The notes beneath the pieces were generated by a model. That model was not told the origin of the DNA. It made no database searches and was given only the letters and a program-made list of their open reading frames with translations. The position numbers were made by a program, and so were the translations under genes. Shown here piece after piece: positions 1 through 23,888 of a stretch of 24,146 nt of DNA. This DNA comes from a virus (taxonomy: Duplodnaviria > Heunggongvirae > Uroviricota > Caudoviricetes): the IMG/VR virus record IMGVR_UViG_2698536506_000006. One strand, 5' to 3'. Numbering within the stretch: position 1 is the first letter of the stretch; each line of letters begins with the position of its first letter.

Positions 1-1032
1 TCAAAAACTTGCTATTGATGTTGGTAGTGTTGCCAGCGGATTAAACCGTAATGCAGTTTCCAGGTGATCCGGTGCCAGATGTGCGTAACGCATAGTCATT
101 TTTATATCGTGATGCCCTAGAATTTTTTGTAAGGCCAGGATATTTCCACCCGACATCATGAAGTGCGCCGCAAACGTATGGCGCAGAACGTGTGTCAGTT
201 GACCGCGAGGGAGCACGATAGACGTTTTTTCCATCACGGATAAAAATTGAAAATAGCAGTCTGTAAAGAAATTGAACCCATCAAGCGCCATGATCTCTTC
301 GTAAAGCTCTTTACTGATAGGGATGCTTCTGTTTTTCTTCCCCTTCGTTCTTACAAAGGTAATTCGGTATTTGGTCACCTGTGAGCGGGTAAGATTTACG
401 GCTTCTCGCCAGCGTGCGCCTGTGCTTAAGCATATTTTGACTACCAGAGCCAGAATTGGGTCCTGACGTTTGCAATCAGCCAGCAGTTCAACAATCTGCT
501 CATGGGTAAGCCATGCCATCTCTTTTTCTGCGATGGTGAATTTTCGCATGTTCTCCAGTGGGTTTGGATACGACCATTCGCCCAGGCGGGATAGTTCGCT
601 AAAAACACTACTTAGATAGCTTTGCTCCAGGTTAATGGTGACCGGGCTTGCTCCTTTCTTCCATTTCTCGCTGAAGTAGATCTCTCCTGTCAGGCGTTTA
701 TCTCGATAGTGGGCAAACATTTTAGAGGTGAGATCGGTTGCAAGGGGATTGCCCAGAGCGTCAACTATCAACAGCAATTTGTCATAGACATGCTGCCCAG
801 CTGTCAGAGATTTACCATGTAGTTTGAACCATAGCTCAACCACGTCTTTCAGTGTTCGACGATCCACTGATTCACCCAGCCAGGGCTTTGCTTCGGTTTC
901 TTCCATCGTGTGACGCTCAAAAGCCAGAGCTTCACCTTTGGTGGCGAATTGTTTACGCACACGACGCCCACTACGTCCGGCGGGGTAACATTCGCAAAGC
1001 CATTTTCCTGTGGTGAGTTTTCGTACTGCCAT
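1..1032 (-). CDS. int: Tyrosine integrase (P2/186 Int family)
   Basis: ORF ends with stop at 1-3. Start chosen at ATG 1032-1030 (MAVRKLTTGKW...), preceded by GGAGGG with about 8 nt spacing. C-terminal region carries tyrosine-recombinase-like motifs (HVLRHTFA...MMSGGNILALQKILGHHDIKMTMRYAHL). The ORF track extends the frame to 1110. Confidence 0.9.
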   Translation of the reverse strand: MAVRKLTTGKWLCECYPAGRSGRRVRKQFATKGEALAFERHTMEETEAKPWLGESVDRRTLKDVVELWFKLHGKSLTAGQHVYDKLLLIVDALGNPLATDLTSKMFAHYRDKRLTGEIYFSEKWKKGASPVTINLEQSYLSSVFSELSRLGEWSYPNPLENMRKFTIAEKEMAWLTHEQIVELLADCKRQDPILALVVKICLSTGARWREAVNLTRSQVTKYRITFVRTKGKKNRSIPISKELYEEIMALDGFNFFTDCYFQFLSVMEKTSIVLPRGQLTHVLRHTFAAHFMMSGGNILALQKILGHHDIKMTMRYAHLAPDHLETALRFNPLATLPTSIASF

Positions 1033-4169: not shown

Positions 4170-5023
4170 GCACCATCCTGAAATGGGCGGGAAATAAAAC
4201 TGCCATAATGTCCGAACTGAAAAAACATCTTCCTGCTGGCCCGCGACTGGTTGAACCTTTCGCGGGTTCCTGTGCTGTGATGATGGAGACGGATTATCCC
4301 AGCTATCTGGTTGCGGATATTAATCCTGATTTAATCAACCTCTATAAAAAGGTTGCCGCTGATTGTGAATCGTTTATATCTCGCGCCAGAGTTTTATTTG
4401 AGATCGCAAACAGGGAGGTGGCTTATTACAACATAAGGCAGGAGTTTAATTACTCAACTGAAATTACTGATTTCATGAAAGCGGTATATTTCCTGTATCT
4501 CAATCGTCACGGTTACCGTGGTTTATGTCGCTATAACAAGAGCGGGCATTTCAACATTCCCTACGGTAATTATAAAAATCCGTATTTCCCTGAAAAAGAA
4601 ATTCGCGCATTTGCAGAAAAGGCCCAGCGAGCAACGTTTATCTGCGCCAGCTTTGATGAAACGCTGGCGATGTTGAAGGCGGGGGATGTGGTGTATTGCG
4701 ATCCGCCGTATGACGGTACGTTTTCCGGCTATCACACTGACGGCTTCACTGAAGATGACCAGTATCACCTGGCATCTGTTCTTGAACATCGGTCATCAGA
4801 AGGACATCCGGTCATTGTTTCTAACAGTGACACATCCCTGATCCGTTCGCTGTATCGCAATTTTACTCACCACTACATCAAGGCAAAACGCAGCATCGGT
4901 GTGGCAGCTGGCGAGGGTAAATCAGCAACAGAAATTATTGCTGTTTCCGGGCCGCGCTGCTGGGTGGGATTTGATTATTCGCGTGGCGTGGATAGTTCTG
5001 CCGTGTACGGAGTACGTGCATGA
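4166..5023 (+). CDS. dam: DNA adenine methyltransferase (Dam family, N6-adenine)
   Basis: Begins [11 protein letters not shown]. AdoMet-binding motif EPFAGSCAV and catalytic DPPY ([11 protein letters not shown]). GGAGGT RBS. Translationally coupled to the upstream and downstream genes. Confidence 0.9.
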
Positions 5024-7407
5024 GTCATGCCGATATGAACAACTGCTGCGGCTTTAACGAAGCTGCCGCATCGTTCTCATGGAACAGCCCGAAAAAGGCC
5101 ATTAACCCTTATCTGGACCCGGCGGAAGTTGCGCCGGTTTCTGCGCTTTCAAACCTGATCACTCTGTACGCTACTGATAACGAGCAGGAACAACTGCGCC
5201 GCGAGGCACTGAGTGATCAGGTCTGGGAGCGTTATTTCTTTAATGAATCCCGTGATCCTGTCCAACGCGAAATGGAGCAGGATAAGCTCATTAGCCGGGC
5301 AAAGATGGCGCATGAGCAGCAGCGTTTTAATCCAGACATGGTCATTCTGACTGACGTCAACGCCCAGCCTTCCCATATCAGCAAGCCGCTGATGCAACGT
5401 ATTGAATATTTCAGCAGCCTGGGCAGGCCAAAGGCTTATTCCCGCTATTTGCGTGAGACGATTAAGCCATGTCTGGAACGACTGGAGCATGTACGCGACA
5501 GCCAGCTATCTGCATCTTTTCGTTTTATGGCAAGCCATGAAGGGCTGGACGGTCTGCTGATCCTGCCTGAAATGAGTCAGGATCAGGTGAAACGCCTGTC
5601 TACCCTTGTCGCTGCGCATATGAGCATGTGTCTTGATGCCGCTTGTGGTGATTTGTACGCCTCCGATGATGTTAAGCCAGAAGAAATCCGCAAGACATGG
5701 GAAAAGGTGGCTGCAGAAACCCTGCGACTGGATGTCATACCGCCTGCGTTTGAGCAACTCCGCCGGAAAAGAAACCGCCGCAAACCTGTGCCTTATGAAC
5801 TCATTCCGGGTTCGCTGGCGCGTATGCTGTGCGCCGACTGGTGGTATCGGAAATTATGGAAGATGCGTTGCGAATGGCGGGAAGAGCAGTTGCGTGCTGT
5901 CTGCCTGGTCAGCAAAAAAGCATCTCCCTATGTCAGCTATGAAGCCGTGATGCATAAACGTGAGCAGCGCCGTAAGTCGCTGGAGTTTTTCCGTTCTCAT
6001 GAACTGGTGAACGAAGACGGCGACACGCTGAACATGGAGGATGTGGTAAACGCCAGCAGCAGCAACCCGGCGCATCGCCGCAACGAGATGATGGCCTGTG
6101 TTAAAGGCCTGGAGCTTATCGCGGAAATGCGTGGTGACTGCGCCGTTTTCTACACCATCACCTGTCCGTCACGTTTCCATTCCACGCTAAATAACGGCAG
6201 GCCAAACCCGACCTGGACCAACGCGACAGTAAGACAAAGCAGCGATTATCTGGTCGGCATGTTTGCTGCATTTCGTAAGGCTATGCACAAAGCCGGGTTG
6301 CGCTGGTATGGCGTGCGGGTGGCTGAGCCGCATCATGACGGCACAGTTCACTGGCACCTGTTGTGTTTCATGCGCAAAAAAGACCGCCGCGCCATTACTG
6401 CATTGTTGCGTAAGTTTGCCATCCGTGAAGACCGCGAGGAGCTGGGCAATAACACGGGGCCACGCTTTAAGTCTGAGCTGATAAACCCGCGCAAAGGAAC
6501 GCCGACAAGCTACATTGCGAAATATATCAGTAAGAATATTGACGGGCGTGGTCTGGCTGGCGAGATCAGTAAGGAAACGGGTAAATCCCTGCGTGATAAC
6601 GCTGAATACGTTAATGCCTGGGCGTCTCTGCATCGTGTTCAGCAATTCCGCTTCTTTGGCATTCCGGGGCGTCAGGCTTACCGTGAACTGCGATTGCTGG
6701 CTGGTCAGGCGGCAAGGCAACAGGGTGACAAAAAAGCAGGTGCGCCGGTACTGGATAACCCGCGCCTTGATGCCATCCTGGCTGCTGCTGATGCTGGTTG
6801 TTTTGCCTCCTACATCATGAAGCAGGGCGGCGTACTGGTTCCCCGCAAATATCACCTCATCAGAACCGCTTATGAAATCAACGAAGAGCCGACCGCCTAT
6901 GGCGATCACGGTATTCGTATTTATGGCATCTGGTCACCCATTGCAGAGGGCAAGATCTGCACTCATGCAGTGAAGTGGAAAATGGTTCGTAAGGCCGTTG
7001 ACGTTCAGGAGGCGGCAGCCGACCAGGGCGCTTGCGCCCCTTGGACTCGTGGCAATAACTGTCCCCTTGTTGAAATTTTGAACCAATCAGGGGGCGAATC
7101 ACCCGAACCCAAAGAGCCGGAGGCGCTGCCGGATCTCCATAATCTGAGCGCGAGGGAACGGCGGGAGCTGACGGCCCGGCTGAGGCTGGTAAAACCGAAG
7201 CGGCGAAAAGGGTACAAACAGGAAATTAACGAACAGCAGCGTCAGCAGCTCGACGCTGAGTTGAGGTCCAGAGGGTTTGAAGCGAGTGAAACAGAGGTGG
7301 ATCTGCTTTTGCGTGGCGGCAGCATTCCGTCCGGGGCCGGGCTGCGTATTTTCTACCGCAACCAGCGCCTGCAGGAAGATGATAAGTGGCGGCAGTGGTA
7401 TTCATGA
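5020..7407 (+). CDS. A: Replication initiation endonuclease gpA (rolling-circle, HUH family)
   Basis: 795 aa. HUH-like motif [10 protein letters not shown] and active-site tyrosine region YIAKYISK. Position after the early regulators as in P2/186. Confidence 0.9.
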
Positions 7408-7497
7408 ATAGCCACAAGGGCACGCAATTACTGCAACGAGTCAGAAGTATCTCATTGAAAGCAAAAAAGCATTTTACATCCGGAAACTTCTTCTATA

Positions 7498-7528
7498 CTG
7501 TATATATAAACAGTGGATATATATACAG
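7498..7528. promoter_or_regulatory. Inverted repeat, candidate operator or promoter element upstream of ORF 7562
   Basis: CTGTATATATA (7498-7508) and its reverse complement TATATATACAG (7518-7528) separated by 9 nt, about 35 bp upstream of an AGGAGGGA RBS. Confidence 0.35.
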
Positions 7529-7561
7529 TTTATTTATCCGGCAGTATCGATAGGAGGGAAG

Positions 7562-7750
7562 ATGCAGGACTATTTTCTGGAGTCGTTGAAGCTCCAGCGC
7601 ATTGATTTTTTTATCAAGCTTGTAGCGGCGAGTGAGTGTGATGACGAAGAAAAGCAGCTGGCGATTCAGTGGGTTTCTGAGTTAACGGATGAGCTGATGG
7701 CGAAGATTCGTGCTCATGAATACAACCGCTCAATGGATATTCCCGGTTAG
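7562..7750 (+). CDS. Hypothetical protein, 62 aa
   Basis: Strong RBS AGGAGGGA. Acidic, helical-looking small protein. Lies between gpA and cos. Confidence 0.5.
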   Translation: MQDYFLESLKLQRIDFFIKLVAASECDDEEKQLAIQWVSELTDELMAKIRAHEYNRSMDIPG

Positions 7751-7828
7751 CAGCAGGAACGTTGCTGGCGCAAGAACTGGCTTCTTACGTCAGCAAGGTT
7801 GAACAACGAGTCCAGCGAGGCGTTAGCC

Positions 7829-8095
7829 ATGGCTAAATCCAACAGCAAATTCCAGACCGTCTATGAGGGGCAGGTGCTTGAGCGTTTCGAGCCCGGTGGA
7901 TGGGTCTTGTTTCAACGCCGTTCTGAATATGGCGGTAAGTTCTGGATGGGACGAACCATGGACGATGTATTTTTGTTTGGTCCCGATCATCCGGTATCTG
8001 GAGGTGAGGCTATGAGCTTCATCATTGATTACGAGGGTGAGCAATTCAGACGGTCTTTACCCGTCGAATATACCCCACAGATACCGCTTTTCTGA
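7829..8095 (+). CDS. Hypothetical protein, about 88 aa
   Basis: ATG at 7829 with GAGG upstream; the frame is open from 7799. Followed by a terminator-like hairpin. Confidence 0.5.
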   Translation: MAKSNSKFQTVYEGQVLERFEPGGWVLFQRRSEYGGKFWMGRTMDDVFLFGPDHPVSGGEAMSFIIDYEGEQFRRSLPVEYTPQIPLF

Positions 8096-8160
8096 GAACC
8101 GGCTGAGTGCATGTCTATGCTGCATGAGATCGCATGATCGTTTGAGGATCGTTTTCGCTG

Positions 8161-8190
8161 AAGCCCGCCAGAACTGGCGGGCTTTTGGTT
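8161..8190 (+). terminator. Rho-independent terminator-like hairpin
   Basis: AAGCCCGCC / GGCGGGCTT 9-bp stem with 6-nt loop, followed by TTTTGGTT. Confidence 0.55.
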
Positions 8191-8231
8191 ATGTCATGCA
8201 GGTGCATGAAAACCGCTACATAAAGCGGGCA

Positions 8232-8250
8232 GGCGTGGCGGGGATACGAG
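8232..8250. other. Candidate cos site (cohesive-end sequence of P2/186 type)
   Basis: GGCGTGGCGGGGATACGAG followed by CGCGCGC. Closely resembles the P2/186 cohesive ends as I recall them (GGCG[A/T]GGCGGGGAAAGCA...). Lies between the A-side and Q-side of the genome as expected. Confidence 0.5.
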
Positions 8251-8297
8251 CGCGCGCCCGGCTTGCTATTTGTTCGTTGCAACATTAGTATTCCTAT

Positions 8298-8450
8298 GCT
8301 CTTTAGCGTTAGGGAACCATTGCGTTCTAGCCGGGCGATAAGCCAGGCTCTAATTTATTGCTCAGTTTAGGGTTGCGAAAGCGACGAATTCGTCGCTTTC
8401 GCTGTCTTTAGTGAAGAGCTCGGCCCGCGCAAGCGGGCCTCACAAGCGGA
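8298..8450 (+). ncRNA. Candidate retron msr/msd non-coding RNA (boundaries approximate)
   Basis: Non-coding stretch immediately upstream of a retron-type RT. Contains a perfect 28-nt palindrome (8375-8402) and a GC hairpin with GCAA loop (8422-8439). Possible promoter TTGCTA (8263-8268), 17-nt spacer, TAGTAT (8286-8291). a1/a2 repeats were not resolved by eye. Confidence 0.35.
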
Positions 8451-9392
8451 ATGTTTATGGAAATTTTATCGGCTGTTAGCAAAGAACTTGGAGTAAACGT
8501 TAACGAGCTGAGGCGGTTATCGAGTGTTGCGCCTAAAAAATATAAAGTCTACACAATTCCTAAACGACAAAGTGGATTCAGGCTTATTGCTCAACCAACG
8601 AGTGAGATAAAGCGAATTCAGCGTGAGGTTGTGAAAATTTTGGCTTCCAAGCTCATCGTGCACGATGCAGCGAAAGCTTATAAAGTTTCTATAGGAATTA
8701 AGGACAATGCCAAAATCCATATGGCAAACTCCTATCTTTTAAAAATGGATTTTCAGAATTTCTTCAATAAAATTAAACCGGCTCTTTTATTTGATAAACT
8801 TCGCTCTCAAGGGGTTGTTTTGTCAGGTGAGGATAAGGAGTTTTTAGAAGGGATTCTTTTCTGGAAACCAGGAAAAAAAAGAAGTATCACTCTCGTGTTG
8901 AGCGTTGGGGCGCCATCCTCACCTTTTGTTAGTAATTTTGTAATGTATGATTTTGATAATTATATAAACAATTGGTGCTCTGTTAGGAATATTTCATATT
9001 CAAGGTATGCTGATGATATTACATTTTCTACAGATGAGAAGAATATACTTTTTGAGGTCCCGAAAGTAGTAAGGTTTGCATTATCATTATGTGCTAAAGG
9101 TATATCTTTAAATGAATCTAAAACTGTATTCACGTCTAAAGCTCATAATAGACATGTGACAGGTGTGACATTAACAGTTGATGGGGAGCTTTCGCTCGGT
9201 AGGCAAAAGAAGAGAATGATTTCTTCTCTGCTGCATAAATATACACTAGGCTTACTGGCTAAAGAGGATGTTATAAGCCTTAAGGGCTTTGTTGGACATG
9301 CTTTATATATCGAGCCTAAATTTATTGCTAGAATGAAAATTAAATATGGGAAAGAAGTAATACATGCGCTTTTTTCTGAGGAGGGGATGTGA
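8451..9392 (+). CDS. Retron-type reverse transcriptase
   Basis: RT motifs: GAPSSPFVSN (motif B-like), RYADDITFS (YADD catalytic motif) and the retron-characteristic VTG motif (NRHVTGVTLTVDG). AT-rich. Alternative start at ATG 8457. Confidence 0.85.
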   Translation: MFMEILSAVSKELGVNVNELRRLSSVAPKKYKVYTIPKRQSGFRLIAQPTSEIKRIQREVVKILASKLIVHDAAKAYKVSIGIKDNAKIHMANSYLLKMDFQNFFNKIKPALLFDKLRSQGVVLSGEDKEFLEGILFWKPGKKRSITLVLSVGAPSSPFVSNFVMYDFDNYINNWCSVRNISYSRYADDITFSTDEKNILFEVPKVVRFALSLCAKGISLNESKTVFTSKAHNRHVTGVTLTVDGELSLGRQKKRMISSLLHKYTLGLLAKEDVISLKGFVGHALYIEPKFIARMKIKYGKEVIHALFSEEGM

Positions 9393-11044
9393 ACTCAAAG
9401 TATACTAAATCACCAAATGACATTCGTACATTATTGCAGTCTTATGTAAATAAAACTGAAGATGGTTTAGAATTCAGTAAAGAGAACATTCCTGAAGAGG
9501 TATCTTCGTTATATAAGGAAATTGAAGATGCACCATTTCTTATAAATAAAGTCGCCATCTCAGACTATAAAAGAGTCAGGGATCTTTTTGTTTCGATCGA
9601 CAAAAAACTAACAGTGTTTGTTGGTGATAATGGTTACGGTAAAACCACCATTCTTGAAGCATTATTTATTGCTTTAAGTTGGTTTAGAGCAAATGTTCAA
9701 AAAGAAGATAAAAGCGGTTTTCATATAAAAGATGGTGATATTAACAATCATAATGATGTCAATTATGCTGCAATAACTGCGCAGTTTAAACTTAAAAAAA
9801 TAACGTCAAATATTTTAGTTACACGTGTTAAAGATGGAGTATCACAAAAAAGAAATAATGAGTTGCTTTCTATAAAAGAGATGGCGTCATTCTTTCGTGT
9901 TGTGAATTCATATTATGAAGATGTAAGCCTTCCGGTTCTTGCATATTACTCTGTATCAAGATCTTCAAATGGTGCAGGCATAGATAATAAAAGAAATGTT
10001 AATAATTCTGTGCGTCGATGGACTAAGCTTGATGCTTATGAAGATATAGAGTTTGATCGCCGTGACTTCGGTGAGTTTTTAAATTGGTTCATATTTGTTA
10101 ATAATAAGGCATTGTCTGAGGAGTCCTTGATACCAGAAAAACAAAGAGATCAACTTGTTATTGATATCTCAAAGCTTAAGGTATCTTTGGAGGTTTTGAA
10201 ATCTTTCAGTGATGTTGATAGAAGAACATTAATAGATATAGAAACACAAATTGCTAATAAAGAGTTGATTCTTAATACGTTACCGTCTACACCAAATGGT
10301 TTAAGTCGTTCAAAAGATATTGTTGCTAATGTTAAAAGGGCAATAATTAATTTCCTTCCTGAAATTAGCTCTGTTGAACTTCAATATACTGAAAATGAAG
10401 TTCGTTTAGTTTTAGCAAAAGATGATTTACTATTAGATGCCCAGCAACTCTCTCAAGGGGAGAAAACTATACTTACATTAGTGGGGGATTTAACAAGACG
10501 CTTGGTGTTGCTGAATCCTAAGTTAAATAATCCACTTCAAGGGAAAGGTATAGTATTAATTGATGAAGTTGATCTTCATTTGCACCCAAGCTGGCAGCAA
10601 AACATTATTGAGAAATTGCAGCATACATTTCCTAACGTACAATTCATAATTACCACTCATAGCCCTCAAATTGTATCGACAGTTCCAAGTAAATGCTTGC
10701 GCATCCTTGAGGAAATAAAAAACCCTTCGACAGGCATGAAGGAATTACGTGTGCTTTTACCATCATCTCAAACAAAAGGTACTAAGAATTCGTACGCTTT
10801 GCTTTATGGGATGAAAACAGATCCTGTACCTAATGTAAAAGAAGTCGCATGGCTGAGCACTTATAAGAAATTTATTGAAAACAGGCAGCAGGATTCGGAG
10901 GAAGCCATAATGATAAGGAAAAAGTTAGACAAGCATTATGGAATTGATCACCCATTATTACTTGAGTGTGATGGTATAATTCGTGTATTAAAGCTAAAAG
11001 ACAAAGTGCGGGGTGAGTCTGGCAATAAGGAATCTAAACAATGA
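9389..11044 (+). CDS. Retron-associated ATPase (PtuA/Septu-like, ABC/OLD-type)
   Basis: Walker A GDNGYGKTT, Walker B VLIDEVDLHLH, H-loop-like ITTHSPQ. GTG start overlapping the RT stop (ATGTGA), preceded by GAGGAGGGG. Confidence 0.8.
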   Translation: MNSKYTKSPNDIRTLLQSYVNKTEDGLEFSKENIPEEVSSLYKEIEDAPFLINKVAISDYKRVRDLFVSIDKKLTVFVGDNGYGKTTILEALFIALSWFRANVQKEDKSGFHIKDGDINNHNDVNYAAITAQFKLKKITSNILVTRVKDGVSQKRNNELLSIKEMASFFRVVNSYYEDVSLPVLAYYSVSRSSNGAGIDNKRNVNNSVRRWTKLDAYEDIEFDRRDFGEFLNWFIFVNNKALSEESLIPEKQRDQLVIDISKLKVSLEVLKSFSDVDRRTLIDIETQIANKELILNTLPSTPNGLSRSKDIVANVKRAIINFLPEISSVELQYTENEVRLVLAKDDLLLDAQQLSQGEKTILTLVGDLTRRLVLLNPKLNNPLQGKGIVLIDEVDLHLHPSWQQNIIEKLQHTFPNVQFIITTHSPQIVSTVPSKCLRILEEIKNPSTGMKELRVLLPSSQTKGTKNSYALLYGMKTDPVPNVKEVAWLSTYKKFIENRQQDSEEAIMIRKKLDKHYGIDHPLLLECDGIIRVLKLKDKVRGESGNKESKQ

Positions 11045-11709
11045 AATTCCTTGCTAGAAATCCCATTGGTCCAGGTGTTTTAGCCGAGTTTGACTACAAT
11101 ATTCATGACTGGAATGCTTTTAAACGGCGACATAAACAATTAGTCTGGGTCGGTTTAGTTGAAATGCAAGGGAAGAGATGTGCGTATTGTGAGCGGAAAA
11201 TAGATATTCACAATAGTGATGATAAGCATATCGAGCATTTTTTGCGTAGAAGCCAGCATAGGCATTTAACATTTGAATGGTCAAACTTGTTCGGCTCTTG
11301 TGCTGAAAATAATCACTGCGGTTTTTACAAAGATGAACAGAGCTATCAGGAGCAAGACCTAATCAAGGCCGATAATGATGACCCCACACATTTTTTCCAT
11401 TTCGCTATTAATGGAAATATGGATATTCGTCCGGGGTTATCGCGAAACGATGAGCGAAGAGCTGAGGTTACTATAAGGGTTTTTAACCTGAATGGTGAAA
11501 AGGGCGGCGTGAAAACTGAGCGCATCAATGCAATATCAGAAACATGGTCATTGATAGAGAGATTTGTTTCTACAGCTGAAGAGTTCATCGAAGAGGGACT
11601 TTATGATGATAGTGTCCGTAACGAACTTCGAGACGAGTATTATAAAGAAATAGACCCCAGACCATTCTCTACTGCGTTGCGTGATGTTTTTGATACGATG
11701 CTTCCTTAA
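11041..11709 (+). CDS. Retron-associated HNH endonuclease (PtuB-like)
   Basis: HNH-type motif CAYCE...DDKHIEHF...N...SCAENNHC. Start overlaps the ATPase stop (ATGA). Confidence 0.8.
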   Translation: MKFLARNPIGPGVLAEFDYNIHDWNAFKRRHKQLVWVGLVEMQGKRCAYCERKIDIHNSDDKHIEHFLRRSQHRHLTFEWSNLFGSCAENNHCGFYKDEQSYQEQDLIKADNDDPTHFFHFAINGNMDIRPGLSRNDERRAEVTIRVFNLNGEKGGVKTERINAISETWSLIERFVSTAEEFIEEGLYDDSVRNELRDEYYKEIDPRPFSTALRDVFDTMLP

Positions 11710-11741
11710 ATTAAAGAGTCTCATTTGAGACTCTTTAATTT
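11708..11741. terminator. Bidirectional terminator between the convergent retron operon and portal gene
   Basis: Near-perfect inverted repeat AAATTAAAGAGTCTCA / TGAGACTCTTTAATTT with a 2-nt loop, between the HNH stop and the portal stop. Confidence 0.6.
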
Positions 11742-12766
11742 TACATCGAATATTCTTTAAAATTTATTATATCGTCATTTAACCATCGGTTGATTTCACA
11801 GATTCTTTGCTGTAAGGGGATTACTTCATTTCTTACAAAAACCTTACTAGCCTTTTCCACATCCCCAAACCCGCCAACATTACTCGGCATAATCCCCATC
11901 ATCTGAGGCGGCACACGATGCGCCGCCATCATGTCATCCCGGCTCACGTTCTTGATATTCAAAAACTCATCCTTCGCCGCGACTTCTGACAACGGGATGA
12001 TCTGAAGCCCGTCCTTTTTGCCGTTAGGCGAGTACATAAACAGGTTGCGGAAGTTACCTGGGCCTTTGGCGCTTTTCATCGCGTTGCGGAGGTTGTTCAC
12101 ATCCTCCTGGTTTTGTGCGGCGTCGGTCATGTACATGATGAAGCCTGCATGACTGCCGTTAATGTAATACTTCCGGCGGAACAGCGTGGCGGACTCGTTG
12201 AGCAGGGCTGACGGAATGGCAGAAAGATAACCGGGCAGGCCGTAGATCTCCTGGTTGATGTCCGGTTCCATCAGATGAAAAATGCTGCCTTTCGTGAACT
12301 GATACGGCTGGGTTGTCATACCGTATTGCACAAACCAGTAGGTATCCAGGTCTAACCCGCGTCGTGTGTATTTTGCCAGGGCAGGTTCAAAGGCGATAAT
12401 TTCACCGAAGCGGTTCGTGCGTTTCTCCAGGTAGGCGTTACCAAATACCAGATAGTCCTGCACAAAACGTGAAAAAGCCTGCTGGCTGAGCAGCGGGTGA
12501 GGGATGTAGGTACTGGTCAGAATGTTGCATTTCACCGCAATTGGTGAACTGTGATGCACGGCGGCGCGGAAGGTGCGCGCCAGTCCGTCAAAGCTTACTG
12601 GCGGCTCATACCAGCGATCTGTCTGTACGCATTCCACATAGTCCAGTAATTCGCGGCGGTCCAGAACAGGAACGGGATCACCGAAGCTGAATGCTTCGGC
12701 TGAAGTTTGTTTTTTATACTGGATCTGATTCGTCGCCGCAGCGCGGTTCTTCTTACTCTTTCCCAT
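11741..12766 (-). CDS. Q: Portal protein (P2 gpQ-like)
   Basis: About 341 aa, the size and position of P2 Q. ATG at 12766-12764 overlaps the terminase stop (ATGA arrangement on the minus strand). Confidence 0.9.
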   Translation of the reverse strand: MGKSKKNRAAATNQIQYKKQTSAEAFSFGDPVPVLDRRELLDYVECVQTDRWYEPPVSFDGLARTFRAAVHHSSPIAVKCNILTSTYIPHPLLSQQAFSRFVQDYLVFGNAYLEKRTNRFGEIIAFEPALAKYTRRGLDLDTYWFVQYGMTTQPYQFTKGSIFHLMEPDINQEIYGLPGYLSAIPSALLNESATLFRRKYYINGSHAGFIMYMTDAAQNQEDVNNLRNAMKSAKGPGNFRNLFMYSPNGKKDGLQIIPLSEVAAKDEFLNIKNVSRDDMMAAHRVPPQMMGIMPSNVGGFGDVEKASKVFVRNEVIPLQQRICEINRWLNDDIINFKEYSM

Positions 12767-14532
12767 CAAAAAATCTCCACAATATTGCTGGTATTGGCGG
12801 ACTCGCCCTGCAGCGGTTCGTTAAACAGTGCGTGCATTGTTGCCCAGGCCAGATCGGCATGGCTGGCTTCTTCGCTGCGGCTGGCTTCATAGGTCGGGCG
12901 GTTGCCGCTGGCGGTGGTGGCACGGCGGATTGCCATGAATGACTGCGCAATGTCGGTGTGTCCGGCGTCAAACTCCAGACGGCGGTGGCTGATAATGTCG
13001 TAGGCCTTGAGTACCAGGGCGTTTTTAACATTGGGGTTATAGACAAACTCCCGGACGGCAGGAAAAAACGCTTTCACGTTCTCATAAACCCCGTGACCGA
13101 CGCCTGTCGAGTCGATGCCGATATAGGTCACGTTGTACTGCTCGGTCAGTTTTTTGATTGCATCAGCTTGGGCGCGGAAGTCCATCCCGCGCCACTGGTG
13201 ACGCTCAAGAATGCGAAACTTACCGCCTGGCACGGCTGGCGGTGCCACCACCACGCATCCGGCGCTGTCGCCGTTCTGCGTACCTTTTGCCGGGTCATAA
13301 CCGATCCACACCTCGCGCCAGCCAAACGGGCGCAGGGCCAGTGCATGAAAGTCGGTCCAGACTTCCCAACTGTCCACCATGCATGCCTGCAGCTCGCTGA
13401 GCGGGAACACGGACGCGAGATCGTCCACAAACTCGCACATCAGCAGGTTCTGGTATTCGTCCGGGCTGTACTCCATGCGCAACTGGTCGAGGTCGAACAG
13501 GTTACAGCCGCCGCGCACCGCATCTTCCACGGTGACTATCTGGCGGTATTGCCCGTCTGCGCACAGCAGGCCGGGGGCCAAGTTGCTGTGGGACAGGTCG
13601 ATGTCCACCTTGTCGGCTTTGTTGCGTCCACGGTTGAACAGCGCACCGGACCAGAATGGATAAGCACTGTGGGTCAGACTGGATGGCGTGGAAAAATAGG
13701 TCTGCCGCCATTTTTTGTGAATAGCCATACCGGAAGCCACTTTGCGCAGCTCCTGGAATTTCGGGATCCAGAAATATTCATCCAGATACAGGTTGCCGTG
13801 GTAACTCTGGGCCGTGCGGGCATTGGTGCCGAGGAAGTAAAGCGTGGCCCCGTTAGGAAGCACCATCGGATCGCCTTTCAGCTCCACCTCCACTTCTTTG
13901 GCAAAGTCGATGATGTACTGTTTAAAGACGTGGGCCTGAGCCTTGCTGGCAGAAAGGAAAATCTGGTTACGCCCGGTCAGCAGGGCGTCAATCAGGGCTT
14001 CACGGGCAAAGTAAAAGGTCGCGCCGATCTGGCGTGACTTCAGCAGGTTGCGGATGCGGTTGGTTTTTCCGGCTTCCCACCAGTGGCGCTGGTAGTTGAA
14101 CATGGAGGAATGGAAGATTTCTTCCAGCTTCTCAATCTGTTCATCGGTGAAAACATTCTTTTCCGGCTGACGGCGCGGGCCTTTGTTGCGGTTGGCGACG
14201 TTTGGGTTTAAGTCGGCTTCGTTGCCGCCATTGTTAAACTTGCCGATCCGCGCGTGGCGTTCCGACTGGCGCGCCAGCAGGTCAATCTCTTTGAAATCTT
14301 TCCCTTCTTTGTGCTCCTTCATAATGAGCTGGCAGTAGCGTGCGGCGGTGGTGAGCTGCATCTGATCCAGCGGCCCATAGTCACCCCACTTGTCGCGTTT
14401 TTTCCAGCTGTGAACGGTTGCAACTTTCTCGCCCAGCATTTCAGCAATGCGGGCTACGCGGTATCCCTGAAAGTACAGCAGCATGGCCTGCCGACGGGGA
14501 TCGAGATCTGCGGGTGTCAGTGTGGTGTTCAT
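12766..14532 (-). CDS. P: Terminase large (ATPase) subunit (P2 gpP-like)
   Basis: 588 aa, divergent from the scaffold gene as in P2 (P/O divergent late promoters). Confidence 0.9.
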   Translation of the reverse strand: MNTTLTPADLDPRRQAMLLYFQGYRVARIAEMLGEKVATVHSWKKRDKWGDYGPLDQMQLTTAARYCQLIMKEHKEGKDFKEIDLLARQSERHARIGKFNNGGNEADLNPNVANRNKGPRRQPEKNVFTDEQIEKLEEIFHSSMFNYQRHWWEAGKTNRIRNLLKSRQIGATFYFAREALIDALLTGRNQIFLSASKAQAHVFKQYIIDFAKEVEVELKGDPMVLPNGATLYFLGTNARTAQSYHGNLYLDEYFWIPKFQELRKVASGMAIHKKWRQTYFSTPSSLTHSAYPFWSGALFNRGRNKADKVDIDLSHSNLAPGLLCADGQYRQIVTVEDAVRGGCNLFDLDQLRMEYSPDEYQNLLMCEFVDDLASVFPLSELQACMVDSWEVWTDFHALALRPFGWREVWIGYDPAKGTQNGDSAGCVVVAPPAVPGGKFRILERHQWRGMDFRAQADAIKKLTEQYNVTYIGIDSTGVGHGVYENVKAFFPAVREFVYNPNVKNALVLKAYDIISHRRLEFDAGHTDIAQSFMAIRRATTASGNRPTYEASRSEEASHADLAWATMHALFNEPLQGESANTSNIVEIF

Positions 14533-14578
14533 GGCACAAACCTACAGCCTTGAATGAAGGCTTTCCCCGCCTGCGGTT

Positions 14579-14596
14579 TGTGTGGTTGTCGGTACA
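14579..14596. promoter_or_regulatory. Candidate Ogr/B activator binding site (TGT-N12-ACA) in the P/O divergent late promoter region
   Basis: TGT at 14579-14581, 12-nt spacer, ACA at 14594-14596, in the 142-bp intergenic region between the P and O starts. Matches the late-promoter activator site consensus of P2-like phages. Confidence 0.4.
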
Positions 14597-14674
14597 AATA
14601 CCGCGCATTGTTTCACTGCCCCCATCACCGCAACCATAAGGCCCCAGTAAGTTTTTTCTAACGGAGCACGGCTC

Positions 14675-15508
14675 ATGACAGTGAAAGCAAAGCGTTTTCG
14701 CATCGGGGTGGAAGGTGCCACCACCGACGGACGCGAAATCCAGCGTGAATGGCTGGAACAGATGGCAGCCAGCTACAACCCGGCGGTGTATACCGCGCTG
14801 ATTAACCTTGAGCACATCAAGTCTTATCTGCCGGACAGCACCTTTAACCGCTACGGCAAGGTGACGGCGCTGTTTGCTGAAGAAATCACGGAAGGTCCGC
14901 TGGCAGGCAAGATGGCATTGTATGCCGACGTTGAGCCAACGGAGTCCCTGGTGGAACTGGTGAAAAAAGGCCAGAAATTATTCACCTCTATGGAAGTCAG
15001 CCCTAAGTTCGCTGATACGGGCAAAGCCTACCTGGTTGGACTGGCCGCCACTGATGATCCCGCCAGTCTGGGTACGGAAATGCTGACATTCAGCGCCAGT
15101 GCAGCCCATAACCCGCTGGCAAACCGCAAGCAGAATCCCGCCAATCTTTTTACCGCTGCAGAGGAAACAGTGATCGAACTGGAAGAAGTCCAGGACGAAA
15201 AACCATCCCTGTTTGCCCGTGTCACGGCGCTGTTCACCAAAAAAGAGCAGTCCGATGATGCCCGGTTCTCTGATGTGCATAAGGCCGTGGAGCTGGTCGC
15301 CACTGAGCAGCAAAACCTGAGTGCGCGCACCGAAAAATCCCTGTCTGAACAGGAAGAACGCCTGTCTGAGCTGGAGACAGCCCTGCAGACACAGTTGACC
15401 GCCTTTAACGAACTGGTGGACAAGCTGAGCCATGAAGACAGCCGCCAGGACTACCGCCAGCGTGCAACAGGCGGTAACGCCCCCGCTGACACTCTGACCA
15501 ATTGCTGA
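14675..15508 (+). CDS. O: Capsid scaffolding protein (P2 gpO-like)
   Basis: 277 aa, directly upstream of the major capsid gene; size and order as in P2. Confidence 0.85.
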   Translation: MTVKAKRFRIGVEGATTDGREIQREWLEQMAASYNPAVYTALINLEHIKSYLPDSTFNRYGKVTALFAEEITEGPLAGKMALYADVEPTESLVELVKKGQKLFTSMEVSPKFADTGKAYLVGLAATDDPASLGTEMLTFSASAAHNPLANRKQNPANLFTAAEETVIELEEVQDEKPSLFARVTALFTKKEQSDDARFSDVHKAVELVATEQQNLSARTEKSLSEQEERLSELETALQTQLTAFNELVDKLSHEDSRQDYRQRATGGNAPADTLTNC

Positions 15509-15524
15509 TGGAGCACAAAACCTG

Positions 15525-16583
15525 ATGAAGAAGAATACCCGCTTTGCTTTTAACGCTTACCTGCAGCAGCTGGCGCGTCTGAACGGTGTGGCAGTTGAAG
15601 AACTGTCCAGCAAGTTCACCGTGGAGCCGTCTGTACAGCAGACGCTGGAAGACCAGATCCAGCAGTCCGCCGCTTTCCTGACGCTGATTAACGTCACGCC
15701 AGTGACTGAGCAGTCCGGTCAGCTGCTGGGGTTGGGTGTTGGTAGCACCATTGCCGGAACCACTGACACCACCGCGAAAGAGCGTGAACCTGTCGATCCT
15801 ACGCTGATGGTCGATGTGGAATACAAATGCGAGCATACCAACTTTGACACGGTGCTGACCTACGCGAAGCTGGACCTGTGGGCGAAATTTCAGGATTTCC
15901 AGGTGCGTATCCGTGACGCCATCGTGAAACGTCAGGCACTGGACCGCATCATGATCGGCTTTAACGGCGTGAAGCGTGCGAAAACCTCCAACCGTAGTGA
16001 AAACCCGCTGCTGCAGGATGTGAACAAAGGCTGGCTGCAGAAAATCCGTGAGGATGCACCGGATCACGTCATGGGCAGCACCACCACAGGCGGTGAAACC
16101 ACACCGGGCGCGGTGAAAGTCGGTAAAGGTGGCGAATATGCCAACCTGGACGCCGTGGTGATGGATGCCGTCAATGAGCTTATCGACGTGGTCTACCAGG
16201 ACGATGACGATCTGGTGGTGATTTGCGGTCGTGAACTGTTGTCTGACAAGTATTTCCCACTGGTCAACAAAGAGCAGGAAAACAGTGAAAAACTCGCTGC
16301 CGATATGATCATCAGTCAGAAACGCATGGGTGGCCTGCAGGCCGTGCGTGCGCCGTTCTTCCCGCCGAATGCACTGCTGATCACCCGGCTGGATAACTTG
16401 TCCATCTACTGGCAGGAAGACACCCGCCGCCGTTCAGTTATCAACAACCCGAAACGTGACCGGATTGAAAACTTTGAATCCGTTAATGAAGCCTATGTGG
16501 TTGAGGACTACCGCTGCGCCGCACTGGTGGAAAACATCCAGATTGGTGATTTCAGCGCCGCCGCAGCCGAAACCGGAGCGTAA
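15525..16583 (+). CDS. N: Major capsid protein (P2 gpN-like)
   Basis: 352 aa. N-terminal pattern (..TRF.FNAYL...A.LNG......KFTVEPSV.QTL) matches P2 gpN as recalled. Confidence 0.9.
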   Translation: MKKNTRFAFNAYLQQLARLNGVAVEELSSKFTVEPSVQQTLEDQIQQSAAFLTLINVTPVTEQSGQLLGLGVGSTIAGTTDTTAKEREPVDPTLMVDVEYKCEHTNFDTVLTYAKLDLWAKFQDFQVRIRDAIVKRQALDRIMIGFNGVKRAKTSNRSENPLLQDVNKGWLQKIREDAPDHVMGSTTTGGETTPGAVKVGKGGEYANLDAVVMDAVNELIDVVYQDDDDLVVICGRELLSDKYFPLVNKEQENSEKLAADMIISQKRMGGLQAVRAPFFPPNALLITRLDNLSIYWQEDTRRRSVINNPKRDRIENFESVNEAYVVEDYRCAALVENIQIGDFSAAAAETGA

Positions 16584-16586
16584 TCC

Positions 16587-19403
16587 ATGAGCCTGAGTCC
16601 CGCACGGCAGCATCGCCTGCGCGTTCAGGCTGAACAGGCCGCCCGCGAGGGCGGCAGTGTTCGCCACGCATCGGGCTATGACCTGATGCTGCTGCAACTG
16701 GCGGAAGACCGCCGCCGTCTCAAGGGCGTTCAGTCCACGGTCAAAAAAGCGGAAATCAAGGTGGAGCTGCTGCCGAAGTACGCCGCCTGGGCAGAGGGTG
16801 TCCTGGCTGCCGGAGGCGCTCAACAGGATGACGTGCTGATGTACGTGATGCTGTGGCGCATTGATGCCGGAGATTATGCCGGGGCGCTGGAGATCGGGCG
16901 TCACGCCCTGCGTCATGGCTGGGTGATGCCGTTGGGTAACCGCAACGTGCAGACCGTGCTGGCAGAGGAAATGGCAGACGCGGCGCAGAGCGCAATGCTT
17001 GCCGCCACCGGCTTTGATGCTGATCTGTTGCTGCAGACGCTGGAGCTGACAGACGGTCTGGATATGCCGGACCAGTCACGGGCACGTCTGCATAAAGCGA
17101 TTGGCGCTGTCTGGACCGACGGCATTGGTAATACGTCAGGCGTCATTCCCGGCAAAACCATTACGGAGCGACAGGCAGCAGAAGGGCTGATCTCCAACGT
17201 GCTGCGTGTCGAGCGGGCGCTGGAAAGGTGTGTGAAGCAACAGCCGCCGCAGAAGGTGTATGACGCTGCGGTGTCGTTTGCCTTCAACGTGGGAACGGGC
17301 AATGCCTGCAGTTCCACGCTGGTGAAATTACTCAATCAGCGGCGCTGGGCAGATGCGTGCCGACAGTTGCCGCGCTGGGTTTATGTGAAAGGTGTTTTTA
17401 ATCAGGGGCTGGATAACAGGCCAACCGCCGCGCAGGCAAAGTTATTCAGTCAGGCCAAAACACGAGTACAGGAACTTCAGCAGACTTATAACGGCTTGTT
17501 GGGGGCGGTCCAGAGACAACGTCAGGCACTTAAAGAATCAGGGATTGATACCAGACAACTCAGTAGTGCCCAGCGAGAACTTAAAAAAAATGCTGAAGAA
17601 ACAAGGCAGGCACTGGAGGGCCAGCAAAAAGCACTTAAACGTCTGGGTGAACAACAGGCACGGATGAACGCTGCCAGAGAACAATACTCAAGACGGCTTG
17701 AAGTGCGCGATCGCATCGCAGGAGCCGGAGCCACTACCACGGCTGCAGGGCTGGCAATGGGTGCGCCAGTGATGGCGGCAGTAAAAAGCTATACCAGCAT
17801 GGAAGATGCCATGAAAGGTGTGGCAAAGCAGGTCAATGGTCTGCGTGACGATAATGGCAACCGCACTGCACGTTTTTATGAAATGCAGGATGCCATCAAG
17901 GCTGCCAGCGAACAGTTGCCGATGGAAAACGGTGCGGTGGACTTCGCTGCACTGGTTGAAGGTGGTGCGCGCATGAACGTCGCAAACCCTGACGACAGCT
18001 GGAAAGACCAGAAACGTGACCTGCTGGCCTTCGCCAGTACGGCAGCAAAGGCGGCAACAGCCTTTGAGCTGCCAGCGGATGAACTGTCAGAAAGTCTGGG
18101 GAAAATCGCCCAGCTCTACAAAATACCTACGGCAGCAGTAACTCGAACCAGCAGCGCGTTGTCCTGGCTGGCTGGCGCACCACTGGCACTGCTGCGACGC
18201 GGGCTTGCTTCATCGGGCAACGCAGCGGGTTTACTTACTGCGCCGTTGTCGTCTTTGCGCCGCACGGCATCACTGACGGGGAATGTCCTGAAAACTGTAG
18301 CAGGTGTGCCGGTTGCACTGTTGCGGTCTGGATTATCCGGTTTACGTGCTGTTGCTGTGATGTTTATGAATCCACTGGCAGCACTACGCGGTGGACTGGC
18401 TGCCGCAGGCGCGGTGCTGCGAGTGCTGGCATCCGGTCCGCTGGCGATGCTGCGCGTTGCTCTGTATGCCGTATCTGGTCTGTTAGGTGCTCTGCTCAGT
18501 CCGATAGGTCTTGTGGTTACTGCACTGGCAGGCGTGGCGCTGGTTGTCTGGAAATACTGGCAACCCATCACCGCATTTCTCGGTGGCGTGGTGGAAGGAT
18601 TCAAAGCGGCGGCAGGTCCCATCAGTGCTGCATTCGAACCACTTAAGCCTGTGTTTCAGTGGATTGGCGACAAAGTGCAGGCGCTGTGGGGCTGGTTTAC
18701 TGATCTGCTGACGCCTGTTAAGTCGACCTCTGCCGAACTGCAGAGCGCAGCGGCAATGGGGCGACGATTCGGGGAGGCACTGGCGGAAGGGCTGAATATG
18801 GTCATGCATCCGCTGGACTCCCTGAAATCCGGCGTTTCCTGGTTGCTGGAGAAACTCGGCATTGTCAGTAAAGAGGCTGCAAAGGCGAAACTGCCGGAAA
18901 GCGTGACGCGTCAGCAACCTGCGACGGTGAATGCAGACGGTAAAGTGATGATGCCATCAGGTGGTTTTCCATCATGGGGATATGGTTTTGCGGGGATGTA
19001 TGACAGCGGTGGGTATATCCCGCGCGGGCAGTTTGGCATTGTCGGTGAAAACGGGCCTGAAATTGTCAACGGCCCGGCAAACGTGACCAGCCGGAGAAAT
19101 ACAGCTGCACTGGCTGCCGTTGTTGCCGGAATGATGGGTGTTGCTGCCGCGCCAGTAGAGCTTCCACCGTTGCACCCTTTGGCATTTCCCGCGAAAGGCG
19201 GTGAAGCGATGGTGAGTCGCGCAGCCACTGTGCCGCCCGTTCAACGGATTGAGGCACCGACGCAGATCATCATCCAGACGCAGCCAGGACAAAGTGCGCA
19301 GGATATTGCGCGGGAGGTGGCACGCCAGCTTGATGAACGTGAACGCAGGCTGAAGGCAAAAGCCAGGAGTAACTACAGCGATCAGGGGGGATACGACGCA
19401 TGA
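16587..19403 (+). CDS. Chimeric 938-aa ORF: gpM-like N-terminus (about aa 1-170), lysozyme-like C-terminal segment (about aa 175-280), then tail tape-measure protein gpT-like (about aa 290-938)
   Basis: N-terminus has gpM-like features (...AQQDDVLMYVMLWRIDAGDYAGALEIGRHALRHG...). Middle has GH24 phage-lysozyme C-terminal motifs (VYDAAVSFAFNVGTGNACSSTLVKLLNQRRWADACRQLPRWVY). The remainder is coiled-coil plus Ala/Leu/Gly-rich hydrophobic repeats typical of tape-measure proteins, ending just before gpU. Junctions approximately at nt 17080-17110 and 17400-17455. Confidence 0.7.
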   Translation: MSLSPARQHRLRVQAEQAAREGGSVRHASGYDLMLLQLAEDRRRLKGVQSTVKKAEIKVELLPKYAAWAEGVLAAGGAQQDDVLMYVMLWRIDAGDYAGALEIGRHALRHGWVMPLGNRNVQTVLAEEMADAAQSAMLAATGFDADLLLQTLELTDGLDMPDQSRARLHKAIGAVWTDGIGNTSGVIPGKTITERQAAEGLISNVLRVERALERCVKQQPPQKVYDAAVSFAFNVGTGNACSSTLVKLLNQRRWADACRQLPRWVYVKGVFNQGLDNRPTAAQAKLFSQAKTRVQELQQTYNGLLGAVQRQRQALKESGIDTRQLSSAQRELKKNAEETRQALEGQQKALKRLGEQQARMNAAREQYSRRLEVRDRIAGAGATTTAAGLAMGAPVMAAVKSYTSMEDAMKGVAKQVNGLRDDNGNRTARFYEMQDAIKAASEQLPMENGAVDFAALVEGGARMNVANPDDSWKDQKRDLLAFASTAAKAATAFELPADELSESLGKIAQLYKIPTAAVTRTSSALSWLAGAPLALLRRGLASSGNAAGLLTAPLSSLRRTASLTGNVLKTVAGVPVALLRSGLSGLRAVAVMFMNPLAALRGGLAAAGAVLRVLASGPLAMLRVALYAVSGLLGALLSPIGLVVTALAGVALVVWKYWQPITAFLGGVVEGFKAAAGPISAAFEPLKPVFQWIGDKVQALWGWFTDLLTPVKSTSAELQSAAAMGRRFGEALAEGLNMVMHPLDSLKSGVSWLLEKLGIVSKEAAKAKLPESVTRQQPATVNADGKVMMPSGGFPSWGYGFAGMYDSGGYIPRGQFGIVGENGPEIVNGPANVTSRRNTAALAAVVAGMMGVAAAPVELPPLHPLAFPAKGGEAMVSRAATVPPVQRIEAPTQIIIQTQPGQSAQDIAREVARQLDERERRLKAKARSNYSDQGGYDA

Positions 19404-19885
19404 TGATGGTGCTGGGATTGTACGTGTTTATGCTGCGCACCGTGCCGTATCAGGAACTGCAGTATCAACGCAGCTGGCGACATGCGGCTAACAACCGGGT
19501 AAATCGACGTCCGTCCACGCAGTTTCTGGGACCGGACAACGACATGCTGACACTTTCCGGTGTTCTTATGCCGGAGATAACAGGCGGCAGGCTGTCGTTG
19601 CTGGCACTGGAACAGATGGCAGAACAGGGGAAAGCATGGCCTCTGATTGAAGGCAGCGGCACGATTTACGGCATGTATGTGATTGAGGGACTGAATCAGA
19701 CTAAAACGGAGTTTTTCCGCGACGGTATGCCGCGCCGGATTGAGTTCACCCTGTCGCTCAAACGGGTGGATGAATCCCTGTCCGATATGTTCGGTGATCT
19801 CAGTTCGCAGCTGAATAATCTGCAGGACACGGCAACATCTGCATTAAGCGATATCAGTAAAACGGTGGGAGGGCTGCTGTCGTGA
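19400..19885 (+). CDS. U: Tail protein gpU-like
   Basis: 161 aa immediately after the tape-measure region with ATGA overlap; size and order as in P2 (T-U-D). Confidence 0.8.
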   Translation: MMMVLGLYVFMLRTVPYQELQYQRSWRHAANNRVNRRPSTQFLGPDNDMLTLSGVLMPEITGGRLSLLALEQMAEQGKAWPLIEGSGTIYGMYVIEGLNQTKTEFFRDGMPRRIEFTLSLKRVDESLSDMFGDLSSQLNNLQDTATSALSDISKTVGGLLS

Positions 19886-23879: not shown

Positions 23880-23888
23880 GTCAGACGA

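Follow-up and report, generated by a model that had tools for sequence, protein, structure and literature searches.

Is the gene cassette at positions 8298-11709 (+) of a 24,146-nucleotide stretch of tailed-phage DNA (IMG/VR record IMGVR_UViG_2698536506_000006, Caudoviricetes; the whole stretch is called the window here, and all positions follow its numbering) a copy of a characterised retron or a divergent one, and can it be expected to defend its host in the form in which it was sequenced? An earlier note had read the cassette as a retron, with a structured non-coding leader, a reverse transcriptase (RT) gene and tightly coupled genes for an ATPase and an HNH nuclease, and had left its relation to known retrons undecided. 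Both this observation and its interpretation proved correct, every element of the layout being found where it had been placed. The cassette is very probably a retron defence operon of type I-A in the classification of Mestre et al. 2020 (PMC7736814), made of a non-coding RNA (ncRNA), an RT, a PtuA ATPase and a PtuB HNH nuclease, and it belongs to a lineage without experimental characterisation, a new member of a well-understood type. What the earlier note did not see is that the msd part of the ncRNA is truncated in the window, and abortive-infection defence cannot be assumed for this truncated copy.

The RT gene spans 8457..9392 (+) and encodes 311 amino acids. The 313-residue open reading frame (ORF) described earlier does exist as the maximal one (8451-9392, from an alternative upstream ATG at 8451), but homologues and the RefSeq annotation start at the second ATG, at 8457, and the protein sequence is identical to WP_001703798.1. 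Its best PADLOC model was RT_I-A (E 3.4e-131, 435 bits, profile positions 1-307 of 308), followed by RT_II-A, with the Abi, DRT and group II intron models far behind, a ranking that sets the enzyme among the retron RTs and apart from those other groups. Pfam RVT_1 and NCBIfam retron_St85_RT (309.5 bits, cutoff 235) were matched as well. All motifs that had been picked out by eye (RYADD, VTG and SP..SN in the RT, Walker A and B in the ATPase, the HNH motifs in the nuclease) are present. With the 311-residue numbering, YADD lies at 184-187, VTG at 234-236, SPFVSN at 155-160 and AHNRH at 229, and profiles and motifs together (YADD, VTG, NAxxH-type) place the protein in retron RT clade 1, that of type I-A (PMC7736814).

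A PtuA-type ABC/SMC-like ATPase of 551 residues is encoded at 9389..11044 (+). It matches the PADLOC PtuA model (E 2.7e-181), the retron-specific ATPase_I-A model (E 1.8e-155) and Pfam AAA_15, AAA_21 and SMC_N, and carries a Walker A motif (GDNGYGKT, 79-86), a signature motif (LSQGE at 354) and a Walker B motif (LIDEVD) whose D392 aligns to D387 of the retron of E. coli FORC82 (PDB 9n69/9n6b/9n6c; George et al., Nat Commun 2025, PMC12475279). It is, in other words, an ATPase of the Walker A/B, ABC/SMC-type, PtuA-like kind (cluster 22_1) that belongs to type I-A retrons (PMC7736814). The 222-residue PtuB HNH nuclease follows 3' of it at 11041..11709 (+), as does the type I-A nuclease of cluster 39_1 and TIGR02646 in the same classification. 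PADLOC PtuB (E 6.9e-114), HNH_I-A (E 2.5e-55), TIGR02646 (116 bits, cutoff 52) and, marginally, the NCBIfam PtuB equivalog (151.3 bits, cutoff 150) all matched it; CAYC stands at 47 and HIEH at 63-66, with H66 aligned to the catalytic H71 of FORC82. The scores of the RT_I-A, PtuA and PtuB profiles exclude a chance match and, judged by sequence, all three proteins are of retron type I-A with their predicted catalytic residues intact.

The earlier note had rightly remarked that the effector pair alone would read as a Septu system: the generic PtuA and PtuB models are the best PADLOC matches of both effectors, and stand-alone Septu (PDB 8ee4/8ee7) has a homologous ATPase and HNH pair. That the two genes form such a system beside an unrelated RT is nevertheless barely conceivable. 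All three genes are translationally coupled by 4-nucleotide overlaps (GTGA at 9389-9392 between RT and PtuA, ATGA at 11041-11044 between PtuA and PtuB), they occur together in every carrier, and both effectors also give full-length matches to the retron-specific ATPase_I-A and HNH_I-A models. Their nearest structures are retron-bound PtuAB, with 532 bits for PtuA compared to 136 bits for the PtuA of stand-alone Septu, which aligned only over C-terminal residues 306-529; Septu PtuB reached 38 bits. The RT residues that touch PtuA in FORC82 (S217, N219 and E220 of the RT-ATPase interface) are also kept here. Septu comprises PtuAB without RT or ncRNA, whereas the present pair is operonic with both, which lie immediately upstream and coupled to it, and assignment to Septu was rejected.

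Among solved structures, the closest matches are without exception complexes of type I-A retrons, namely FORC82 (9n69), Ec83 (9e8z) and Ec78 (9l7p/9vhe), and together with the PADLOC I-A models they support the class that had been proposed from motifs and gene order. The RT scored 376 bits against 9n69, 286 against Ec83 (9e8z) and 281 against Ec78 (9l7p). PtuA scored 532 bits against 9n69 (chain 9n69_A, E 1.1e-158), 264 against Ec78 and 213 against Ec83 (E 6e-62), while PtuB reached 240 bits with 9n69 (chain 9n69_F, E 2.3e-70) and 107 with Ec78; no PtuB chain of the Ec83 entry was among the matches of the PtuB structure search. Ec78 (Retron-Eco7) and Ec83 (Retron-Eco4) share the type I-A architecture with the cassette, and their RTs are respectively 49 % and 50 % identical to the one studied here; the PtuA of Ec83 is the more distant, compared to those of FORC82 and Ec78. 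The cassette as an Ec78 equivalog was ruled out, its RT being 49 % identical and its PtuA staying at 460.7 bits, under the cutoff of 500, with the NCBIfam Ec78-PtuA equivalog. The question that the earlier note had left undecided is settled in favour of a divergent copy that is neither Ec78 nor Ec83.

The FORC82 retron is the nearest relative. It shares the gene order, the 4-nucleotide coupling and the slot between cos/gpA and portal genes of a P2-like prophage, and the residues mutated in that system are all identical here (ATPase D387, HNH H71 and the suppressor sites V73, Q454 and G44). The two ncRNAs align over their full length, a1, UUAGC, SL2, the GCGAAAG stem base and a2 being identical. 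On the other hand, several basic IS1 residues that face the multicopy single-stranded DNA (msDNA) in FORC82 (R195, K198, K201 and K203) are N or V here, and the middle of the msd stem differs in sequence, the stem being down to 12 bp in the window. Identities to the retron of the FORC82 chromosome are 56 % for the RT, 47 % for PtuA and 49 % for PtuB; given these values and the different interior of the msd stem, the cassette as the FORC82 system itself was also ruled out. Because identities are confined to 47-56 % and the Ec78-PtuA equivalog cutoff is missed, we consider the cassette a separate type I-A lineage and no copy of any characterised retron. A megablast of the cassette against 5426 E. 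coli genomes gave no match to any other retron, and a literature search for its RefSeq protein accessions returned no paper.

The structured leader that had been noticed upstream of the RT gene is the retron ncRNA (msr-msd, from a1 to a2), which spans 8298..8419 (+). Rfam msr RF00170 matches 8298-8366 (55.1 bits, gathering score 52, E 1.5e-7), beginning exactly at the start of the cassette. Alignment to known msr-msd sequences, which the earlier note had suggested, gave an end-to-end match with the FORC82 ncRNA and with those of other related retrons, in which the near-invariant blocks are GCTCTTTAG(C/T)G, AGCCGGG-N-AGCCAGGCT, TTATTG, GGTTGCGAAAG and CTTTCGCTGTCTTTAGTRAAG. The minimum free energy fold of 8298-8419 (-50.2 kcal/mol, z -4.0) consists of an a1/a2 stem, two msr stem-loops, a linker and the msd hairpin. 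The inverted repeat a1 (GCTCTTTA, 8298..8305, +) pairs in the folds with a2 (TGAAGAGC, 8412..8419, +), which is likewise present in the consensus, and a1 is invariant or covarying in seven relatives. The consensus fold of seven sequences holds compensatory changes at 21 of 46 pairs, nearly all of them in the msd stem, with a single compensatory pair in the msr stem-loops. The predicted branching (priming) G lies at 8306 (+) in the invariant UUAGC motif, by equivalence to A7/G8 of the FORC82 ncRNA (PMC12475279). It is followed, according to the folds and the Rfam alignment, by the msr stem-loops (8312..8348, +), one at 8312-8328 and the RT-handle stem-loop GCCGGGCGATAAGCCAGGC at 8330-8348. The conserved linker UCUAAUUUAUUG...UUUAGGGUU (8349..8374, +), near-invariant in the alignments, would by homology act as the 'clamp' and as the termination and template region paired to the msDNA 3' end (PMC12475279, PMC12819146). 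Of the features of type I-A ncRNAs (IA1/IIA1 family, PMC7736814), the cassette has the msr, a1/a2, UUAGC and the stem-loops, while the msd hairpin is shortened; a long msd hairpin is found in the full-length allele described below and only in part in the window copy.

Upstream of the ncRNA, a putative sigma-70 promoter (TTGCTA-17-TAGTAT, 8263..8291, +) was recognised by eye with 8 of 12 consensus positions, and would start transcription near 8298. E. coli relatives retain its -10-like CATTAGNAT block (TAAAAT in FORC82, for instance); a promoter scan with a threshold of 9/12 called no site upstream of the ncRNA. Between a2 and the RT start lies a GC-rich hairpin formed by an inverted repeat (GGCCCGC-GCAA-GCGGGCC, 8422..8439, +), which may be an attenuator setting the ratio of ncRNA to RT mRNA. 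Relatives carry a hairpin of unrelated sequence at the same position, followed by a T-run in FORC82 and in L016, another relative.

The msd hairpin of the window (8375..8402, +) is a perfect 28-nucleotide palindrome with 14-nucleotide arms that are 100 % complementary, folding into 12 bp with an AATT loop. Only two of the 5426 complete E. coli genomes contain the cassette, and both copies, 99.8-99.9 % identical to it, are 48 bp longer. Aligned pairwise with E. coli AREA_497, the window lacks these 48 bp within its msd hairpin, where the long form reads GCGAC[GAATTCCGCCTTCGCATCCTATGGCTGTTGCCATAGTTTACGAAGGCG]GAATTCGTCGC. The junction of the deletion is a GAATTC (8386..8391, +), a 6-nucleotide microhomology: the long form reads GAATTC-42 nt-GAATTC, so the loss runs from one GAATTC to the other, symmetrically about the hairpin axis. 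The hairpin measures 76 nt and 33 bp in all 12 distinct other records of the cassette (L001, L002, L005-L013 and L095, one with a single-nucleotide polymorphism in an internal loop), compared to 28 nt and 12 bp in the window. Homologous hairpins of 18 distinct relatives from viral contigs range from 53 to 78 nt and from 19 to 33 bp, none being shorter. The full-length msd is also longer than that of Ec78, whose whole msDNA measures 78 nt, compared to 76 nt for the hairpin alone in the full-length allele. The proteins themselves are exactly those of the consensus: the RT is that of AREA_497, PtuA that of M37H and PtuB that of both. Nor does the region upstream show any change private to the window.

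GAATTC occurs in both msd stem arms of the long form (L001) and also in the hairpin of the distantly related L025, a sharing that, as far as these sequences tell, could be due to chance or to common ancestry. In a related metagenomic retron (L023, IMGVR_UViG_3300016649_000424) an NN stands exactly at the tip of the msd hairpin (GCGAAAGTAACGCATTCGCTTCNNGAAGCG...), a gap in the assembly at the structural position that corresponds to the deletion of the window.

To estimate the msDNA of both alleles, we assumed that reverse transcription begins immediately 5' of a2 and ends at UUUAGGGUU, the msDNA being complementary to that stretch. Applied to FORC82, this rule gives 91 nt, close to the measured ~90 nt (PMC12475279). 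The window would produce an msDNA of ~46 nt with a 12-bp stem (-15.9 kcal/mol), and the long allele one of ~94 nt with a stem of ~33 bp (-43.3 kcal/mol).

The published type I-A systems suggest what such a difference could mean. The FORC82 msDNA scaffolds four PtuA subunits, only 12 tip nucleotides protruding past the ATPases, and RT-dead mutants could not be cloned (PMC12475279); the FORC82 and Ec78 structures agree that toxicity results when reverse transcription or the contacts of the msDNA are lost. The flap nucleases of T3 and T5 degrade the msDNA, upon which the HNH nuclease is activated, a tRNA is lowered (tRNA-Ser in FORC82, tRNA-Tyr in Ec78) and translation stops. The Ec78 hairpin, ~110 Å long, passes like a 'harpoon' or 'nail' through a dimer of PtuA dimers clasping PtuB and is a length-sensitive restraint on PtuAB (PMC12804668, PMC12819146, PMC12673091). 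Cutting its 28-bp stem to 22, 16, 10, 6, 5 or 0 bp led to a progressive loss of colony-forming units, exceeding 10-fold at 10 bp or less; lengthening was harmful as well, and what is sensed, according to the authors' proposal, is the length of the msDNA.

The retron of the window would function likewise, its msDNA, trigger and tRNA target being inferred by homology with FORC82 and Ec78. The ncRNA would be transcribed from about 8298, gripped by the RT at the msr stem-loop and primed at the 2'-OH of G8306, and the RT would start immediately upstream of a2 and copy the msd to give a hairpin msDNA. This hairpin would thread two PtuA dimers and, with the RT, keep PtuB inactive. Phage flap nucleases or exonucleases that destroy or shorten the msDNA would then free PtuAB, which would deplete a host tRNA and arrest translation, resulting in abortive infection. 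In cells that truly carry the deletion, the short msDNA could occupy only ~40 % of the PtuA channel; its 12-bp stem would provide duplex for roughly one PtuA dimer, a loss that far exceeds the tip. The published experiments suggest that losing 48 bases of msd should weaken the brake on the toxin. A short allele that is real would be expected either to be leaky or partly self-activating, or to be impaired in defence but survivable at single copy; a third possibility, against expectation, is that it is tolerated.

Several points weigh against reading the locus as a defence retron with a truncated msd. The promoter is weak by consensus, and msDNA production, trigger and tRNA target are extrapolated from systems that are only 47-56 % identical, among which Ec78 and FORC82 already differ in their tRNA target. 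In FORC82, trimming of the msDNA tip loop had no effect on defence, so some shortening is tolerated. The short allele occurs in a single assembly, since the 100 % identical IMG/VR record UViG_2671180674_000014 is the window's own source, and we found no compensating mutation in RT, PtuA, PtuB or the promoter region. A toxic allele that had persisted would be expected to carry such compensation, so its absence speaks for an artefact, for a deletion of very recent date or for tolerance when expression is native. Scanning IMG/VR with a motif common to both alleles returned only the window's own source. Neither the deletion junction nor the long-form sequence was found in JGI metagenome contigs, a collection that is uninformative on the rarity of the short allele because it lacks the cassette altogether.

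An independent assembly bears on the origin of the deletion. A contig of SRR3492225, found through the 938-residue chimeric prophage protein described below, carries the same defective prophage with 0 differences over 17,512 bp (6635-24146), except that the 48 bp are kept. Since this assembly is identical elsewhere and has the 48 bp, the deletion is either extremely recent or absent from the chromosome. We give a little less than an even chance to the explanation that it is not chromosomal, a polymerase having skipped the hairpin in library amplification or sequencing, which would leave an ordinary full-length type I-A retron at the locus. Besides the full hairpin in an assembly that agrees at 17,512 of 17,512 other compared positions, this explanation is favoured by the long allele in 12 of 12 other records, the missing compensation and the great stability of the DNA hairpin (-43.3 kcal/mol), skipping of which would give just such a microhomology deletion; the NN at the msd tip of L023 further indicates that such hairpins do trouble assembly. 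Yet the 12 other assemblies, many of them from short reads, recovered the hairpin without trouble, SRR3492225 may come from another isolate, and the junction shares only 6 nt (GAATTC), which k-mer assemblers do not bridge. Collapse of the assembly graph as sole cause was rejected, as collapse between the 25-nucleotide inverted arms would delete only the 26-nucleotide tip while the observed join uses a 6-nucleotide homology inside the arms. Because a 6-nucleotide microhomology join is not made by a k-mer assembler, we think that the DNA molecules that were sequenced did carry the deletion, which could have arisen through replication slippage or hairpin excision in the isolate, or through polymerase skipping in library preparation. 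The odds between a deletion real in the isolate and a library artefact are roughly even.

A deletion that is real may have disabled the retron, which would then be decaying with its defective prophage, forming no RT-msDNA-PtuA4-PtuB complex and having lost defence, with any toxicity survivable at single copy. We regard this as possible but rather unlikely. The prophage is clearly degenerate (the 938-residue chimera, missing tail and lysis genes), a 377-bp duplication interrupts PtuA in another carrier, toxic FORC82 mutants could be cloned under limited expression, and the Ec78 truncation series is consistent with such a loss. Conversely, none of the three ORFs is damaged or departs from the consensus, and retention of the retron across differently deleted prophages argues for selection. 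Less likely still, and in our view improbable, is a real deletion that is tolerated, the ~46-nucleotide msDNA with its 12-bp stem still restraining PtuAB in what would be a working variant with a minimal msDNA, perhaps triggered at a different threshold. A stem of about 12 bp is reportedly near the minimum for RT-DNA synthesis in engineering work on Ec86. A 9-bp stem was used in PMC12819146, the 16-bp variant of Ec78 was only mildly affected, the >10-fold drop coming at 10 bp or less, and tip truncation was harmless in FORC82; the proteins are unchanged and the strain is viable. These points must be set against the structures, where the msDNA spans both PtuA dimers, against covariation, which maintains at least 25 stem pairs, and against the relatives, 0 of 18 having a hairpin under 53 nt and 19 bp.

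It is doubtful, though by no means far-fetched, that the deletion is a real, recent and natural msd truncation with wild-type RT, PtuA and PtuB, in a strain that lives with a 12-bp stem near the release length of Ec78. If so, one of three things would hold: the length rule fails here at native expression, an unlinked suppressor is present, or the retron is hair-triggered or chronically leaky. More speculatively, the retron might have edited itself, a short msDNA made by an RT slip between the GAAUUC repeats having recombined into the chromosome in the manner of an oligonucleotide, a route to which we attach very little credence.

The surroundings of the cassette agree with its being defence cargo. 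Its GC content (31-40 %) is below that of its flanks (52-58 %); the prophage that carries it in its cos-proximal gpA-portal hotspot is P2-like, defective and located next to rybB/ybjL. Its neighbours are gpA and a pair of small ORFs on one side (5020-8095) and, on the other, the genes for portal and terminase (11741-14532, -). On the left the hotspot is bounded by a P2 gpA-type replication endonuclease (5020..7407, +; PF05840 Phage_GPA) and on the right by a P2 gpQ-type portal protein (11741..12769, -; PF04860 Phage_portal). Just upstream of the retron stands a cos-like sequence (GGCGTGGCGGGGATACGAG, 8232..8250, +), which we take to resemble the P2 cohesive end; the 158-nucleotide block that holds it (8100-8257) recurs at ~97 % in over 1200 complete E. 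coli genomes. Rousset et al. 2022 (PMC9122126) described this gpA-gpQ hotspot of P2-like phages as cos-proximal. P2 old/tin and other gpA-gpQ cargo occupy this same locus but are unrelated in sequence and mechanism. Other strains (L096-L105) have the same integrase (window 1-1032) and backbone at rcdA...rybB/ybjL with varied cargo between gpA and portal, including AIPR, GmrSD, DarT with a Macro-domain protein (DarTG), PCTIR/TIR, and HNH with SieB.

The two small ORFs between gpA and cos (7562-7750 and 7832-8095, both +; 62 and 87-88 residues) matched no Pfam or NCBIfam model. In other backbones a DinI-like gene stands in place of the second, the retron lying behind either version. An ORF of 938 residues at 16587-19403 (+) is a chimera of a P2 small terminase (35-163), a lysozyme (170-278) and a tape-measure C-terminus, and also occurs in GenBank (OAC16356.1, SQM32321.1, SQM73051.1); in-frame fusions have cost the prophage its lysis genes and most of its tail genes. 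RybB small RNA (21369-21447, -; Rfam 105 bits) is encoded just beyond the right end of the prophage and before ybjL, and the prophage attachment site may be beside or within the RybB 3' end.

Among the other carriers, L001, L002/L008, L007 and L012 bear independent prophage deletions (a portal-baseplate V fusion, a terminase truncated next to gpD, and others), and all of them keep the three retron genes and the long msd. Retention of the retron despite different prophage deletions fits domesticated defence cargo. The PtuA of L009 (GCA_002152215.1, 2797-5004) is split by a 377-bp duplicate of window 9270-9646, comprising the end of the RT gene and the start of the PtuA gene, a natural inactivation of the effector with the msd still at full length.

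The exact PtuB sequence was found in 308 blocks of a protein collection and the cassette in many E. coli isolates, and RTs of the same 90 % identity cluster are also present in Pluralibacter and Cedecea. Type I-A retrons have only recently been explained structurally, as systems where an msDNA hairpin serves as scaffold and ruler silencing a tRNA-depleting ATPase-nuclease. With the cassette, E. coli has a fourth such lineage, which shares ~50 % identity with the three that have been characterised, and a comparison of its trigger range and tRNA target with those of Ec78 (Tyr) and FORC82 (Ser) would be informative. It also provides a ready pair of alleles, with hairpins of 76 and 28 nt in an otherwise identical background. 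Should the short allele be an artefact, msd hairpins can be silently shortened in genome records, which matters for the mining of retrons for genome editing; should it be real, the pair would test the msDNA-length model at native expression.

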